NCBI GenBank assembly: GCA_028865345.1
Contig: JAGWKL010000001.1
Span: 235,098 to 299,097 of the forward strand
Reading direction: 5' to 3'
Length of the DNA: 64,000 bases
DNA from: Candidatus Omnitrophota bacterium
GTDB lineage: Bacteria; Omnitrophota; Gorgyraeia; Zapsychrales; Fredricksoniimonadaceae
Position numbers and translations under genes: made by a program. The stretch's first letter is position 1. Each line of letters opens with the position of its first letter. This document shows positions 3,245 to 35,994 of this stretch, piece by piece. The notes below the pieces were generated by a model. It had not been told where the DNA came from. It was given only the letters and a program-made list of their open reading frames with translations, and searched no databases.

Positions 3245-3448
3245 TTACTTTATTCCCAAGCGCCCCAAGATCCACACCATCGGGCACCAGTTCGTAAATG
3301 CGGATTGCAGGAGGTTGAGACCCACAAAGGCGGTGAACCATAACCATAAATGGCCGAAATAGTGCGCCAGGACCAGGCTAAGAAGTACAAAAAATCCGGC
3401 GATCCCGCGCAGTGCTCTTTCCAGCATATTGATTCTCCTTTCCTTCAA
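3245..3448 (-). CDS. DUF2892 (YgaP-like) small membrane protein
   Basis: 67 aa, 'RALRGIAGFFVLLSL...' and C-terminal 'NWCPM' motif characteristic of DUF2892. Confidence 0.5.
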   Translation of the reverse strand: MKERRINMLERALRGIAGFFVLLSLVLAHYFGHLWLWFTAFVGLNLLQSAFTNWCPMVWILGRLGIK

Positions 3449-3490
3449 TTTGGTAAACCCGATACCCTGGCGAAGGGAGTTGCGTTAACC

Positions 3491-6400
3491 TTATCCACCG
3501 TGCGCTGGTTTGGGTTTCATGACCATATAATAAATAACCGGTATGGCCGTACGTGACAAGAAGGTCGATGCGATCTCCCCTGCCATAAGTGACAATGCCA
3601 GGCCCTGGAAGATCGGGTCAAAAAGGATGACTGATGCCCCGACAAAGACCGCCATGGCCGTCAGCAGCATGGGCCTGAAACGCACCGCACCGGCGTCTAT
3701 CACCGCTTCTTCCAGGGACATCCCTTCCCTGAGACGCAACTGGATAAAATCCACCAGGATAATGGAATTCTGCACCACGATCCCTGCGCCCGCAATCATG
3801 CCTATCATGGAGGTGGCGGTAAAAAAGATCCCTGTCATCCAATGGGCCGGCAGGATCCCCACGAGCGTCAAGGGGATCGGCATCATGATGATCATCGGCA
3901 CTTTAAAGGACTTAAACCATCCCACAACCAGAACATAGATCAAGACCAGTACAATTGCAAAAGCAATGCCTAAGTCCCTGAAAACCTCATAGGTGATCTG
4001 CCACTCTCCGTCGAATTTCAAGGCCCAGTGATTTTGATTGGGCGGCATGCCGGTCCAATAGATCTTCAATGATTTCTGGCCTTCCGGATGCGACGGGAGA
4101 GGAAGTTTCTCGAAAGCCTTTTGCAAATCAAAAAGCACGTAGACAGGGCTTTCAAACGGCCCTGCCACATCGCCGAAAACATAACCGACCCTCATGAGGT
4201 TCTTATGAAAGATCGGTTTGGACTTAAGCCTGTCTTGTACCCTGACTAAGTCCTTAAGCGGTATAGGAATTCCGGTATTCGACAATAATGTCATCCCCAA
4301 AATACTGTTCAGGTCCCTGCGTTTATTTTCCGGCAGGCGCACGACGATTTCCACAGGTTCATATTCATTGGAAAGGTGCGCCAGGCCGACATCCCTGCCT
4401 GCCAAGGCCGTTGAAATGGTCGCAGCAATCGCATTGGGCGCAATACCGTTGAGACTGGCCTTTTGACGGTCAACGACCAACCGGAACAGTTTTTCATTGC
4501 CTGAGGGAGAAGGAGTAGTGATGTCCGTGACGCTGGGGTTTGATGACATCACCCCCTCAACCTGTTGGGCCAGCTTGTCGATCCCGGCCCTATTGGGACC
4601 GTAGATCTCCATGACGAGCGTGGATAATACCGGCGGGCCAGGCGGAACTTCAGCCACTTGGGACTGCCCGCCGTAGCGTGCAACAATTTCGTGGATCTTG
4701 GGGCGGACGGACTTGGCAATATCGTGGCTTTGCCGCCGCCGCTCGGCTTTAGGTAAAAGATTGACCTGCAGGTCCGCCTGGTTGGTGCCGTGGCGAAGAT
4801 AATAATGCCTGACGAGCCCGTTGAAATTATACGGCGCGCTCGTTCCCACATAAGCTTCGATGTTGTCCACCTCCGGGACTGTCTGTAAATACTTAGCGAT
4901 CTCTCCGATGACATCGTTTGTGGTTGCCAACGATGTCCCCTGCGGCATGTCCAGAACCACCTGAAACTCATTTTTATTGTCAAAGGGCAGCATTTTCACC
5001 TTCACCCATTTAAGAGGTATCAATGAAACAGAAAGCAACAAAAGAACGCTGATCACAATAAGAAAAACGGCGCGGACCCGGGAATTGTAAATTAACGGCT
5101 TCATGTAGGAACGGTAGACCCGGGTCAGGAAATCCTCCCGGCTGTCATGGCCTTTCATGTCCCCTTTTTCGAAGGCGCGCTTGAGGATAATGGTCGCGGC
5201 CCATGGTGTCGCCATAAAAGCCATCAGCGTGGAAAAGAAAATGGCGAGGCTTGATCCGATGGGGATAGGACGCATGTACGGGCCCATCAGCCCCCCGACA
5301 AAGGCCATGGGCAAAATGGCCGAGATGACCGTCAGGGCAGCCAGGATGAGCGGGCTTTGGACCTCATTGACAGCGCCGATGACAATATCCAAAAATTGAC
5401 GCCCCGCATTTTTCGCCAGACGCAGGTGCCTGACGATGTTTTCCACATTGACTATGGGGCCGTCGACAAGGATACCGATGGAAAAAATCAGTGCGAAAAG
5501 TGTTATTCTGTTGAGGGTAAAGCCGATCCAGTAAAAAGCAGCCAGGGTAAGGGACAACGTCAGAGGAATGGTCACCGCCACAATGCCCGCTTCCTTCCAT
5601 CCCAGGACCATGGCAATGATAAGGGCCACCCCTCCCACCGCCAGCCCCATATGGAAAAGAAGTTCGTTGGATTTGTCCGTCGCTGTTTTTCCATAGTTGC
5701 GCGTGACCTTCATGTGCACGTCCGATGGTATCAGGGCCCCTTTTAAAGTGTCCACTTTCTTGAGGACACGATCGCACAACCACGCGGCATTGGCGCCCTT
5801 CCTCTTGGATATGCTCAATGTCACTGCCTCAAAGGGCCCCTTAGACGGATATTCCCTTTGATCGCCGAAACGGATATTCACATCATGTTCCTGAGTATCG
5901 GGCCCGTCGACAATCCGGGCGACGTCTTTTAAATAAACGATACGCCCAACCGATGTGCCGACAACAAGATTTTCCAGGTCTGCTTTGGACGTGATAAATG
6001 AGTCAGCCTCGACGCCTATGACGTCAGGCGTTGTTTGCAGGTGTCCGGCCGGCATTTTGACGTTGGAAGACTCGATGAGCCGTTCAATGCTCAACGGGTC
6101 GATCAGATGCTCTGAAAGCTTGGCCCCATCAAGCAGGACCTGAAAGGTGCGCTTATGGCCGCCTATGATCCGGGTATCTGAAATATCCGGTATGGCGTTG
6201 ACCTCCTGCTGTATCGAGGCAACCACGCGGCGCAAAGTCTCCGTATTTTCCTTACCGGAATAAAAGGTCAGGGCCAGGATCGGCACATCATCGATGGAAT
6301 GGTATTTGATCAGGGGTTGTGATGCGCCGGGCGGCAAAAAGTCCTGGTTCGCAAAGACCTTCGTGTATAATTTCGTCAATGACTGCTCGACATCCTCCCC

Positions 6401-26876: not shown

Positions 26877-26913
26877 AAAAAGCCCTGATAATCCATGATT
26901 ATCAGGGCTTTTG
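26877..26913. terminator. Bidirectional rho-independent terminator (stem AGCCCTGATAATC/GATTATCAGGGCT flanked by A-run and T-run)
   Basis: 13-bp perfect stem, 3-nt loop, 'GAAAA' upstream and 'TTTT' downstream; lies just 3' of the minus-strand hemolysin-III gene. Confidence 0.5.
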
Positions 26914-27665: not shown

Positions 27666-28667
27666 TTACGCCTTTTCTTTGACCATCTTCGATAAAATTG
27701 AAAAATTCTTCGTGAGCCAGAAAAGCAAGGCCATCTGCCTTTTGGTCTGCGCCAGCGGCCTTGCCGGTAAGCCCCACATAACAGCGCCATCATCAATGTT
27801 GCCAATGATACCGCTTTTACCACCGATGGTCGCATTCTTACCTATGGTCACATTATCAATTACTGCGACCTGGCCGCTCATGGTCACATTGTCACCTATG
27901 ACAACGCTGCCAGCAATCCCGCATTGGGCTGCCATGATGACATTGCGCCCTATTTTGACATTGTGTGCAATATGGCAAAGATTGTCTATTTTTGAATTCG
28001 CCCCTATCACCGTATCATCCAAAGACCCTCTGTCGATACTCGTGTTGGCGCCGATTTCTACATTTTCTTCAATTATGACCTTTCCCAATTGCGGGAATTT
28101 ATAAATAGTCTCCTGGTCTTTGACATAACCAAAACCATCACAACCAACAACCACACCCGCATGCAGAATGACATTTCTTTTTAATACGGAGTTCTGGTAT
28201 AAAACCACTCGAGGATACAAATGGCAAGAGTCCCCTATGAAGCATTTTCCCTTGATCACACAACCGCTTTCTATAATGACATTGTCCCCGATGGTGACAT
28301 GCCCTTCTATGGAAACCTGGGCACCTATGCATACGTTGTTACCGAATTTGACAGAAGAAGCCACTACCGCCGAAGAATGTATGAAAGAGGTGCTTGGTTC
28401 CAGAGGATATAAAATGCGGTAAGAAATCAAGAAAGCCAGTTTTGGGTTATGGACTCTTATCAGGGGCTTAGTTGATGTCCTCATTGCCAGCGTCGTCAAG
28501 ACACAAGAACTCCGGCTTTTTTCGGCCTGACTCAGCTTTTTCTCATCCAGCGCAAACGTCAGATCACCCTCTCCGGCAGAACCAATGCCGCTCAAACTTG
28601 TTATATTAATATCATTATCCCCTTCAACGGCACCTTTTATAAGAACAGCCAAATCGCTAATCTTCAT
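27666..28667 (-). CDS. lpxD: UDP-3-O-(3-hydroxyacyl)glucosamine N-acyltransferase
   Basis: N-terminal 'MKISDLA...' domain plus long left-handed beta-helix hexapeptide repeats ('IGDNVII...IGANTSI...IGRNVIM'). Confidence 0.9.
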
Positions 28668-28822
28668 AAAAGCCTCCTCAAAACTTTCACCTTCTGCTCA
28701 TCAAAGGATTTGTTGGCGTGCATATGGCAGTAAATACCATCATTATAAACACTCAAAGGTTGTTTACAGCCCTGATACTTACACTTTCTTCCTTTTTTAA
28801 AAGTAATTACCTTTTTAAGCAT
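28664..28822 (-). CDS. Candidate 52-aa Cys/His zinc-ribbon-like small protein ([52 protein letters not shown])
   Basis: Not in the ORF track; its stop overlaps the lpxD start as ATGA; its start overlaps the infA 3' end by 8 nt; 'AAGGGA' SD upstream; C-x4-C...C-H-x-H. Confidence 0.35.
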
Positions 28823-29069
28823 TGGGACCATTCCCTTGGCCTGGGTGACCCGCCTTATGTCTAAATGTAATCCGCCCGCGACTTAGATCATACGGGGAAA
28901 GCGCTACGGTGACAGCATCACCGGGCGTAATTTTAATAAAGAACTTCTTCATTTTTCCGCCGATATAGGCTGTAACCATATGCCCATCCTGAATGGCGAC
29001 CGTAAATTGAGCATTGGACAGAGCCTTCTGAACAATGCCTTGAACCTCTACAGCTTCCTCTTTGGCCAT
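28815..29069 (-). CDS. infA: Translation initiation factor IF-1
   Basis: '...[44 protein letters not shown]' S1-like IF-1 signature (with a short C-terminal extension). Confidence 0.85.
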
Positions 29070-29566: not shown

Positions 29567-30163
29567 TATTGTTCCTGCCTTTCTACAAAAATTTTCTTAT
29601 GTTAACAACAATATTAAAATTTCTCATATTGCCAACATCAAACCATATCTGGTTCCCTTACTTTAAATTAACCCTGTCTCTTCCAATAATATTGTCAGCC
29701 CTAAAACGAACATCGGGATTTTGCCCGCGTCTAATAACTCCCTGCCCATTGCCCCGATCATAAGAACTAATGGTTCCTCTTTCCATCACCGTAACTTCGA
29801 GGAAAATAAAGAATTAAATAGAAACTTGCTGGCGGCTCTTGATCAATGACTTAAATAAATAGAAGGTCTGTCGGCAGATTTCAGAAAAAAGTTGGAGAGA
29901 TCTGTAGGGGTGCGGATTATCTATTTATAAAGGCAGTATACGCCTTTAAGTTCATCTTGACAATGGAATAAAGGAACATTCATATTTCGACCTATCCGTC
30001 GAGATATTTCTCTATCTCTTTTCATTTAGTTAATGCGTGGGATCTCCGACGAGAAATGAAGATTTTGATCCGCCGGATAATTGTCGTAAGTATATATACT
30101 TAAATTACTTACGTAAATCTTGGGTCGCTGGCGGCAGAAGGTCAGAATTTGTTTATTTACTGT

Positions 30164-32536: not shown

Positions 32537-32613
32537 TGGGGTGAGTGACGGGATTTGAACCCGCGACCTGAAGAGCCACATTCTTCCGCTCTGCCAACTG
32601 AGCTACACCCACC
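32537..32613 (-). tRNA. tRNA-His (anticodon GTG) with encoded G-1 and CCA
   Basis: Hand-folded cloverleaf: acceptor GTGGGTG/CACTCAC, extra 5' G, C73 discriminator, anticodon loop ATGTGGC, T-loop TTCAAAT. Confidence 0.85.
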
Positions 32614-32634
32614 ACTTGAGAAATGTCTGATATC

Positions 32635-32712
32635 TGGCGCGCCTGGCACGAATCGAACGTGCGACCCACAGCTTAGAAGGCTGTTGCTCTCATCCAACTG
32701 AGCTACAGGCGC
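32635..32712 (-). tRNA. tRNA-Arg (anticodon TCT)
   Basis: Hand-folded: acceptor GCGCCTG/CAGGCGC, anticodon stem ACAGC/GCTGT, loop CTTCTAA, T-arm GCACG-TTCGATT-CGTGC, CCA encoded. Confidence 0.85.
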
Positions 32713-35917: not shown

Positions 35918-35994
35918 GGTCGGGGAGGAGAGATTTGAACTCTCGACCTCTTGCTCCCAAAGCAAGCGCGCTAGCCAACTGCGCTACTCCCCGT
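35918..35994 (-). tRNA. tRNA-Pro (anticodon TGG)
   Basis: Hand-folded: acceptor CGGGGAG/CTCCCCG, D-stem GCGC/GCGC, anticodon stem CTTGC/GCAAG with loop TTTGGGA, T-arm GAGAG-TTCAAAT-CTCTC, CCA encoded. Confidence 0.85.

Follow-up and report, generated by a model that had tools for sequence, protein, structure and literature searches.

We analysed a stretch of 64,000 nucleotides (hereafter the window) from a Candidatus Omnitrophota bacterium (contig JAGWKL010000001.1, positions 235,098 to 299,097), focusing on a 52-codon open reading frame (ORF) on the minus strand between infA, which encodes IF-1, and lpxD. This ORF is almost certainly a real gene, here called ZF after the CCCH zinc finger that its product is predicted to form. 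Its relatives make up a family of small stand-alone bacterial proteins, and we rate at about an even chance the proposal that ZF is a zinc-dependent nucleic-acid-binding accessory protein of a cold-shock-type module for RNA remodelling and the start of translation. The ZF gene and its elements are as follows.

28664..28822, minus strand: ZF gene, coding sequence of a 52-amino-acid CCCH zinc-finger protein; preferred start ATG at 28822-28820, stop TGA at 28666-28664
28832..28837, minus strand: Shine-Dalgarno sequence AAGGGA, inside the 3' end of infA and 9 nt upstream of the ATG at 28822
28823..28831, minus strand: possible three-codon N-terminal extension; alternative in-frame ATG at 28831, giving a 55-amino-acid form that begins MVPM
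28718..28792, minus strand: finger core, G11 to H35, from the conserved residues in alignments of 77 and 103 sequences and the AlphaFold2 core
28783-28781 (C14), 28768-28766 (C19), 28729-28727 (C32), and 28720-28718 (H35), minus strand: codons of the predicted zinc ligands

Conservation of the ZF reading frame

LpxD was used as the query in species-representative genomes, which yielded 15 Omnitrophota loci with LpxD identities of 60-84%. A frame homologous to ZF lies directly upstream of lpxD in L004, L005, L006, L008, L015, and L016, and in L008 it remains beside lpxD although infA sits 1.8 kb away. Across all eight orthologs compared (8/8), the ZF frame is the only one of the six reading frames without stops, and each ortholog has a purine-rich Shine-Dalgarno-like motif 4-9 nt before the start. 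A chance or antisense ORF is ruled out by the stops that all other frames contain in the orthologs. Comparison of the orthologs by the Nei-Gojobori method gave proportions of synonymous differences (pS) of 0.6-1.0, which is saturated, versus proportions of nonsynonymous differences (pN) of 0.17-0.37, and the ratio of nonsynonymous to synonymous substitution rates (dN/dS) was 0.08-0.34 in the three pairs for which dS could be estimated. The saturated pS with low pN indicates that the ZF frame is under purifying selection as a protein, and the Ka/Ks-type check that an earlier interpretation of this DNA (the sequence-only reading) had proposed thus came out in favour of a gene. Selection, conservation, and a confidently predicted structural core (see below) all agree with its claim of a genuine small Cys/His protein. 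An open frame of this length is unremarkable by itself, with a chance of about 5% for 52 codons by hand calculation from the local base composition and 70 ORFs of at least 30 amino acids within 6.5 kb around the gene; it is conservation that sets the ZF frame above chance.

The closest relative, L002 (metagenome-assembled genome (MAG) JAGWOI01, LpxD 84% identical), has a pseudogenised ZF copy (L002 3829-3990), in which a 1-nt deletion follows CRQ, TGA stands in place of the TGC codon of Cys32, and R12 has given way to another residue. A frame broken in close relatives was what the sequence-only reading had set against the gene. Such a break occurs in L002 only, and because hundreds of homologues and the other six relatives with this synteny keep the frame intact we do not take it as a sign of a spurious ORF. 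As far as its sequence can tell, the L002 copy shows either a lineage-specific loss, implying dispensability, or a poor MAG consensus, and not a false gene. L005 has two paralogous ZF genes (3392-3550 and 3839-3991) that flank infA in the order csp-ZF-infA-ZF-lpxD-DEAD, so the family can be multi-copy. A motif scan of the window found one family copy only.

The ZF gene is tightly packed between its neighbours. The 52-amino-acid ORF at 28664-28822, the ATGA that its stop shares with the start of lpxD (lpxD ATG at 28667-28665), the 8-nt overlap of its start with the end of infA (stop TAA at 28817-28815), and the AAGGGA motif had all been described in the sequence-only reading and are borne out by the sequence. 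The tight coupling that was claimed on this basis is likewise reflected in the overlaps, and on the lpxD side it is kept in the syntenic orthologs, where the junction lies between an overlap of 4 nt and a gap of 28 nt in seven loci. On a Logan contig identical to this region, the prediction of a gene caller is the 55-amino-acid form (P0001). We favour the start at 28822 over that at 28831 because AAGGGA abuts the ATG at 28831 without spacing and because the orthologs have N-termini of the type MLKK or MFKK. The resulting protein has a mass of 6 kDa and a pI of about 10, with 13 lysine and arginine residues versus three aspartate and glutamate residues, and the chain ends 17 residues beyond H35.

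A family of stand-alone CCCH fingers and its remote relatives

A word-indexed search with the single ZF protein found only the protein itself. A phmmer search of 1.84e9 cluster representatives returned 74 proteins with E<=1e-3 (best 1.3e-14), nearly all of 45-90 amino acids; P0031, an unrelated repeat protein, was removed from this set. Searching with a family profile gathered 100 proteins, among which the window ZF scores 6.9e-18, and none of the 100 contains a Pfam domain. The alignments of 77 and 103 sequences show that C14, C19, L23, and C32 are invariant and that R12, S24, Y26, N27, and H35 are at least 90% conserved. This gives a ligand spacing of C-x4-C-x12-C-x2-H (C14, C19, C32, H35) and a family core of GR-C-x4-C-x3-LS[IV]YN-x4-C-x2-H, of which the window protein carries GRKC and LSVYN. 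The ligands had originally been read as C-x4-C...C-H-x-H; C14, C19, C32, and H35 are indeed conserved, but H33 is variable and the true second pair is C-x2-H. The window protein has the features that define the stand-alone family, namely the 4/12/2 ligand spacing, GR together with LS[IV]YN, sequence similarity, and a single domain of 45-90 amino acids.

To the protein searches we added a hand-made degenerate DNA pattern (G-R-x-C-x4-C-x3-L-S-[IV]-Y-N-x4-C-x2-H) of about 45 bits, for which fewer than one chance match is therefore expected. It matched at least 120 metagenome loci and nine IMG/VR viral contigs. The named sources of the family are Omnitrophota, Acidimicrobiales, and other Actinomycetota. 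Some members are fused, whether to DnaD_N/HTH_36 (P0043), to a YacG-like second finger, to extra CxxC repeats (163 amino acids), or to a 300-amino-acid protein. The names supplied for the profile-search and cluster members are all "hypothetical protein", except for one cluster member labelled "mycothiol system anti-sigma-R factor", which is mislabelled or fused. The gene had been thought too short for standard annotation to find; on the contrary, public assemblies already include gene calls for ZF and its homologues, always under the name "hypothetical protein". Sequence searches of Pfam, NCBIfam, PHROGs, and PDB gave no above-threshold family for ZF, and the searchable literature on the motif and on Omnitrophota zinc fingers held nothing relevant. 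Fingers of the C-x4-C...C-x2-H kind are known, but a stand-alone bacterial family with the LS[IV]YN insertion is uncurated and is absent from Pfam, NCBIfam, PDB, and the searchable literature.

The structure of ZF was predicted with AlphaFold2 from the 103-sequence alignment, with a mean predicted local distance difference test (pLDDT) score of 79.6 and scores above 90 across residues 11-30. The model consists of a short knuckle followed by a helix (H33-51) that begins right after C32, with only two isolated bridge residues. Given the invariant CCCH pattern and the confident predicted core, the four ligands very probably hold one zinc ion. The protein had been described as zinc-ribbon-like. 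A zinc ribbon does not fit the model, in which the first ligand pair has the form C-x4-C, the C-x2-H pair sits at the N-terminus of the helix, and the two CxxC beta-hairpin knuckles are missing; the predicted fold is one knuckle plus a helix.

Remote similarities lead to phage nucleases. Eight family members have weak matches to PHROG 144, an HNH endonuclease family (best 6e-5), BFVD fold matches also lead, weakly, to phage HNH endonucleases, and tblastn gave weak matches (E=0.2) inside two HNH genes. With hhalign, the family profile aligned with a probability of 92.4% (E=5e-7 pairwise) to Gordonia phage Kabocha gp17 (residues 43-76, KGRKCSFEGCDKPM---RSGGYCSTHY) and with one of 84.7% to the N-terminus (residues 13-47) of the Streptococcus phage SVep1 HNH endonuclease. 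The aligned stretch of gp17 is an above-threshold match (31.5 bits) to Pfam Zf_WRKY19 (PF24906, gathering score 27 bits) and lies upstream of an HNH_3 domain. The window ZF itself has no match to Zf_WRKY19 at E<=1, and three of the 77 family members match it below threshold (best E=5.5e-4). By these comparisons the ZF family is a remote homologue of the pre-catalytic CCCH finger of phage HNH endonucleases, and the two agree in the order of their ligands and in local sequence ([KR]-G-R-K-C-x4-C ... [YF]-C-x2-H-[YA]). The two differ in the spacer, which is nine residues in the phage fingers and 12 in the ZF family because a three-residue family-specific insertion creates the invariant LS[IV]YN. 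They also differ in that ZF stands alone at 45-90 amino acids without a nuclease domain (the 52-amino-acid protein has no HNH match) and in that the window ZF is found in a cellular housekeeping operon rather than in a phage genome.

Other families share the order C-x4-C then C-x2-H, namely zinc site 1 of SBP, EsV-1-7, CxC6, and TAZ. CxC6 (PF18721) matches 39 of the 77 members below threshold, with scores of 20.5-20.7 bits (E of about 5e-4), the best being 20.7, against a gathering score of 27.5; TAZ (PF02135) matches 17 and EsV-1-7 (PF19114) five of the 77, also below threshold. SBP (PF03110) gave a single match of 19.7 bits (E=1e-3), in the fused member from L120, where the model needs 27 bits. 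All four families are eukaryotic or viral and differ in their spacings, and none reaches its gathering score. SBP needs about 76 residues for its two zinc sites (eight ligands), and TAZ forms a helical bundle with three sites, whereas ZF has one four-ligand site only.

Genomic context of ZF genes

Forty dereplicated loci of intermediate G+C content with Omnitrophota-type members were used to examine context. Genes for cold-shock-domain (CSD) proteins, IF-1, DEAD-box helicases, or RNA-recognition-motif (RRM) proteins number 28 in the 151 kb within 3 kb of ZF, versus zero in the 134 kb of the same contigs that lie more than 3 kb away. Because these counts are not phylogenetically independent, a nominal P-value for them is not to be taken literally. 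Such a neighbour is present in 18 of the 40 loci, 10 of which are outside the group that shares the arrangement of the window, and the pairing of ZF with genes for RNA binding and translation occurs in at least five distinct gene orders. Curated models assigned the partners to helicases of the CshA/RhlE/DbpA/CsdA type, an RRM "RNA-binding regulator", and CspD/CspE-like proteins, and a TypA/BipA partner scored 870 bits, above its cut-off.

The loci fall into three sub-groups. Group A (eight loci) has the arrangement of the window, csp-(rpoZ)-infA-ZF-lpxD, with csp 270-640 nt upstream of ZF in six loci and a DEAD-box helicase gene after lpxD in two. Group B proteins begin with MKKVKTS and their genes lie directly upstream of a DEAD-box RNA helicase gene, often overlapping it (ZF/DEAD-box junctions at 496/493 in L160, 976/973 in L085, 641/631 in L148, 3349/3327 in L181, and +15 in L123). 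Group C proteins end in PYHH and are encoded at about 20 loci, mostly stand-alone; exceptions are L056, with the order ZF-csp, and L156, with an RRM gene within 3 kb. Over all loci an RRM protein gene lies within 3 kb of ZF in three. Further arrangements are csp-ZF-bipA in L055 and, in L052, ZF after a gene for a DesA-like desaturase and a PAS/HisKA_3 kinase gene.

Upstream of the group C paralogs at L129 10855-10995, L173 2858-2998, L174 5948-6088, and 13 further loci is a near-consensus promoter (TTGACA, 17 nt, TGGTATAAT), followed in the same loci by a leader that spans about 95 nt and is highly conserved (AAAGATTAGAAATCTTTAGGCC...GACAACTAACCTTT...GCTTTT...AGGAGTAACGATG; alignment A4). The leader has no Rfam match, and a scan of the window did not find its motif there. 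RNAalifold gave -0.86 kcal/mol with one compensatory change, and the weak structure would pair with the Shine-Dalgarno and start region; a conserved RNA structure was set aside on account of this low value. The leader may be cis-regulatory.

High-G+C clusters of neighbours were confounded by spurious long ORFs and were used only where Pfam-annotated gene calls agreed. In Acidimicrobiales (L058 5001-5216 and L060 5001-5207) the ZF gene always follows a pair of genes for an ECF sigma factor and a zf-HC2 anti-sigma factor and precedes Zincin_2-tilS-hpt-folE-folP. Candidatus Actinomarina has a nearly invariant 64-amino-acid form (MTDGLKASQIKGG...VKYPRVRGRILQETA), present on at least 1000 contigs including Tara contigs; its loci comprise L082 3983-4177, L083, L099, L102, L105, L107, L134, L136, and others, and in six loci the gene is just upstream of copZ-copA. 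Other actinobacterial copies lie beside a Ni-superoxide-dismutase-like gene. Actinobacterial forms of both high and low G+C content (e.g., L071, L093, L104, and L131) carry a P-R-x-R-G-[KR] motif, 10-14 residues past the last ligand, that is absent from the window ZF and that we take to be reminiscent of AT-hook or RGR minor-groove motifs. Viral members are found on the nine IMG/VR contigs (L062-L070), and at L191 5001-5195 ZF lies in a phage-like block of tiny genes adjoining a CHAP lysin gene. These actinobacterial and phage contexts hold no pointer to RNA, and therefore DNA-binding and metal or redox readings of the family stay alive.

The operon around ZF in the window comprises the following features.

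28815..29069, minus strand: infA (IF-1), 84 amino acids; TIGR00008, 91.5 bits
27666..28667, minus strand: lpxD; TIGR01853, 322.6 bits
29085..29390, minus strand: rpoZ (RNA polymerase omega), start uncertain, 90 amino acids according to the gene caller; PF01192, 45.2 bits, and TIGR00690, 30.7 bits
29363..29566, minus strand: csp (cold-shock-domain gene), head of the cluster; PF00313, 38.6 bits
27009..27623, minus strand: gene for an hlyIII-family membrane protein, last before the terminator; PF03006, 130.6 bits
26878..26912, no strand assigned: bidirectional intrinsic-terminator-like hairpin with a 16-bp stem, from a promoter and terminator scan

The hairpin at 26878-26912 is probably the end of the csp-rpoZ-infA-ZF-lpxD-hlyIII unit. 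The infA gene of the window has an 11-residue C-terminal extension (28815-28850, minus strand) that crosses the Shine-Dalgarno sequence and start of ZF. IF-1 is 73 amino acids long in L005, L006, L015, and L016, 84 in L004, and 78 in L002, and to judge from the sequence the extension looks like a recent read-through into a former spacer. Just upstream of the intact csp gene is a second cold-shock-domain-like ORF (29570-29789, minus strand), interrupted by an in-frame TAA at 29660-29658 (MERGTISSYDRGNGQGVIRRG...VNLK*GNQIWFDVGNMRNFNIVV), which looks like a degenerate csp duplicate or pseudogene. Rfam gave no notable RNA element in the ZF operon; the sole above-threshold Rfam matches in the 64-kb window are three tRNA genes, two of them adjacent, at 32540-32712 and 35920-35993 (minus strand).

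Possible roles of the ZF protein

In the favoured explanation, with ZF as an accessory protein of an RNA-remodelling module, the gene is part of a probable csp-rpoZ-infA-ZF-lpxD-hlyIII transcript and is translationally coupled to IF-1 (upstream) and LpxD (downstream). The protein would hold one zinc in a knuckle-plus-helix finger through C14, C19, C32, and H35, and its basic N-terminal arm and zinc knuckle would bind nucleic acid, with RNA or a ribonucleoprotein as the most probable target. It would then act as a small accessory factor to the co-encoded Csp, IF-1, DEAD-box helicase, RRM protein, and BipA, a set that in model bacteria forms the core of cold-shock adaptation. We infer the function from sequence and context together, and this holds for zinc binding, nucleic-acid binding, the partners, and the link to cold alike. 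ZF resembles the CspA family and the cyanobacterial RRM proteins of the Rbp type in being small, basic, and co-encoded with csp, infA, DEAD-box, RRM, and bipA genes, and its proposed role as an RNA-binding accessory factor would be analogous to theirs; those proteins have an OB or RRM fold, whereas ZF is a predicted zinc knuckle. Among the cold-shock factors listed for model bacteria (PMC12485807) are Csps, DEAD-box helicases, IF1, BipA, and a lipid A acyltransferase.

Several observations weigh against this proposal. The neighbourhood signal is partly lineage synteny, as L003 and L007, which have no ZF gene, also have lpxD beside a csp or DEAD-box gene, and about 20 group C paralogs are without neighbours of the csp, infA, or DEAD-box type. 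The context in Actinomycetota is quite different (sigma/anti-sigma, Zincin_2-tilS, copZ-copA). The only detectable relatives sit in DNA-acting HNH endonucleases, and one family member is fused to a DnaD_N/HTH_36 DNA-binding domain; both observations point to DNA rather than RNA. The gene is also lost in the closest relative and thus appears dispensable at least there.

The main rival explanation is that ZF is a small sequence-specific DNA-binding regulator of transcription, acting on its own or neighbouring stress operons through the finger and basic GR or RGK arms. We regard this as possible but clearly less likely. The sole detectable relatives being fingers of DNA-cutting enzymes speaks for it, as do the sub-threshold matches to the DNA-binding SBP and to the CxC6 and TAZ fingers and the junction of the P0043 finger to a DnaD_N/HTH_36 winged helix. 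Several branches have ZF as the first gene of a unit (ZF-DEAD and, in Candidatus Actinomarina, ZF-copZ-copA), the latter order recalling the copY-copZ-copA layout, and the highly conserved promoter and leader of group C could carry an operator. The position of ZF in the window and its orthologs, in mid-operon and coupled on both sides, is however typical of stoichiometric partners and not of regulators. To recognise DNA specifically, one finger of 25 residues is small; no conserved palindrome was found, and the Omnitrophota neighbours are RNA-binding proteins. An improbable reading, in our assessment, is that ZF is a metal- or redox-sensing zinc-thiolate switch, in which oxidation or Cu(I) would displace zinc and alter a partner, as in zinc anti-sigma factors. 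Three of the four ligands are cysteine, and actinobacterial copies occur directly downstream of the ECF sigma/zf-HC2 anti-sigma pair, beside the Ni-superoxide-dismutase-like gene, or upstream of copZ-copA, to which the anti-sigma-R label of one cluster member can be added. Such contexts are nevertheless confined to Actinomycetota, where each may be one ancestral arrangement; nothing comparable surrounds the window gene, and among the Pfam models neither zf-HC2 nor any other known redox switch showed similarity.

Two further explanations are very unlikely. ZF could be a remnant or domesticated piece of a mobile HNH homing endonuclease or phage gene without a cellular role, or a non-functional ORF, in keeping with the homology to the N-terminal finger of phage HNH endonucleases, the members on nine IMG/VR contigs and in a phage-like gene block, and the pseudogene in L002. 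Strong purifying selection across lineages with saturated synonymous sites argues otherwise, as does synteny that is kept at LpxD identities of 60-84%. The LS[IV]YN insertion is family-specific, invariant, and absent from the endonuclease fingers, and no HNH domain or mobile-element genes lie near ZF in the window. Slightly less likely still is that ZF has kept the classical place of a zinc-binding ribosomal protein, as a divergent L36 (rpmJ) or some other. L36, whose gene rpmJ lies after infA in many bacteria, is basic and binds zinc through CCCH ligands with a C-x12-C spacer; ZF also directly follows infA and is basic and of similar size, and the sequence-only reading had pointed to small zinc-binding ribosomal proteins. 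This resemblance did not hold up, and L36 was rejected on Pfam, hhalign, and ligand spacing. Pfam Ribosomal_L36 (PF00444) has no match at E<=1 for ZF or at E<=0.1 for the 77 members, and hhalign of the same family profile, which also serves as a control for the phage comparison, gave probabilities of 0.2% with Escherichia coli L36 and 0.1% with Thermus L36. L36 has a ligand spacing of C-x2-C-x12-C-x4-H in about 37-41 amino acids, in contrast to C-x4-C-x12-C-x2-H in 52 amino acids for ZF. The family also occurs in many unrelated contexts, can have several copies per genome (L005), was lost in L002, and in L008 stays by lpxD with infA 1.8 kb away.

Beyond the accessory role proposed for ZF in the window, we tentatively suggest, as a possibility that we consider unlikely at present, that the family as a whole may be an unrecognised class of bacterial zinc-dependent RNA-binding cofactors of DEAD-box helicases, IF-1, and Csps under cold or RNA-folding stress, borrowed by phages and abundant in the ocean through Candidatus Actinomarina. 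If true, a new type of cold-shock protein would have gone unnoticed under the name "hypothetical protein". Small proteins have received too little study, and the ZF family is conserved across two phyla and phages. Should ZF bind RNA and work with Csp, IF-1, and DEAD-box helicases, the bacterial toolkit for RNA remodelling and cold adaptation would gain a zinc-finger component, and the protein would offer a handle on the physiology of the uncultured Omnitrophota; as a DNA-binding regulator, it would be among the smallest bacterial zinc-finger regulators. On either reading the family merits a curated profile, which would end its annotation as "hypothetical protein".

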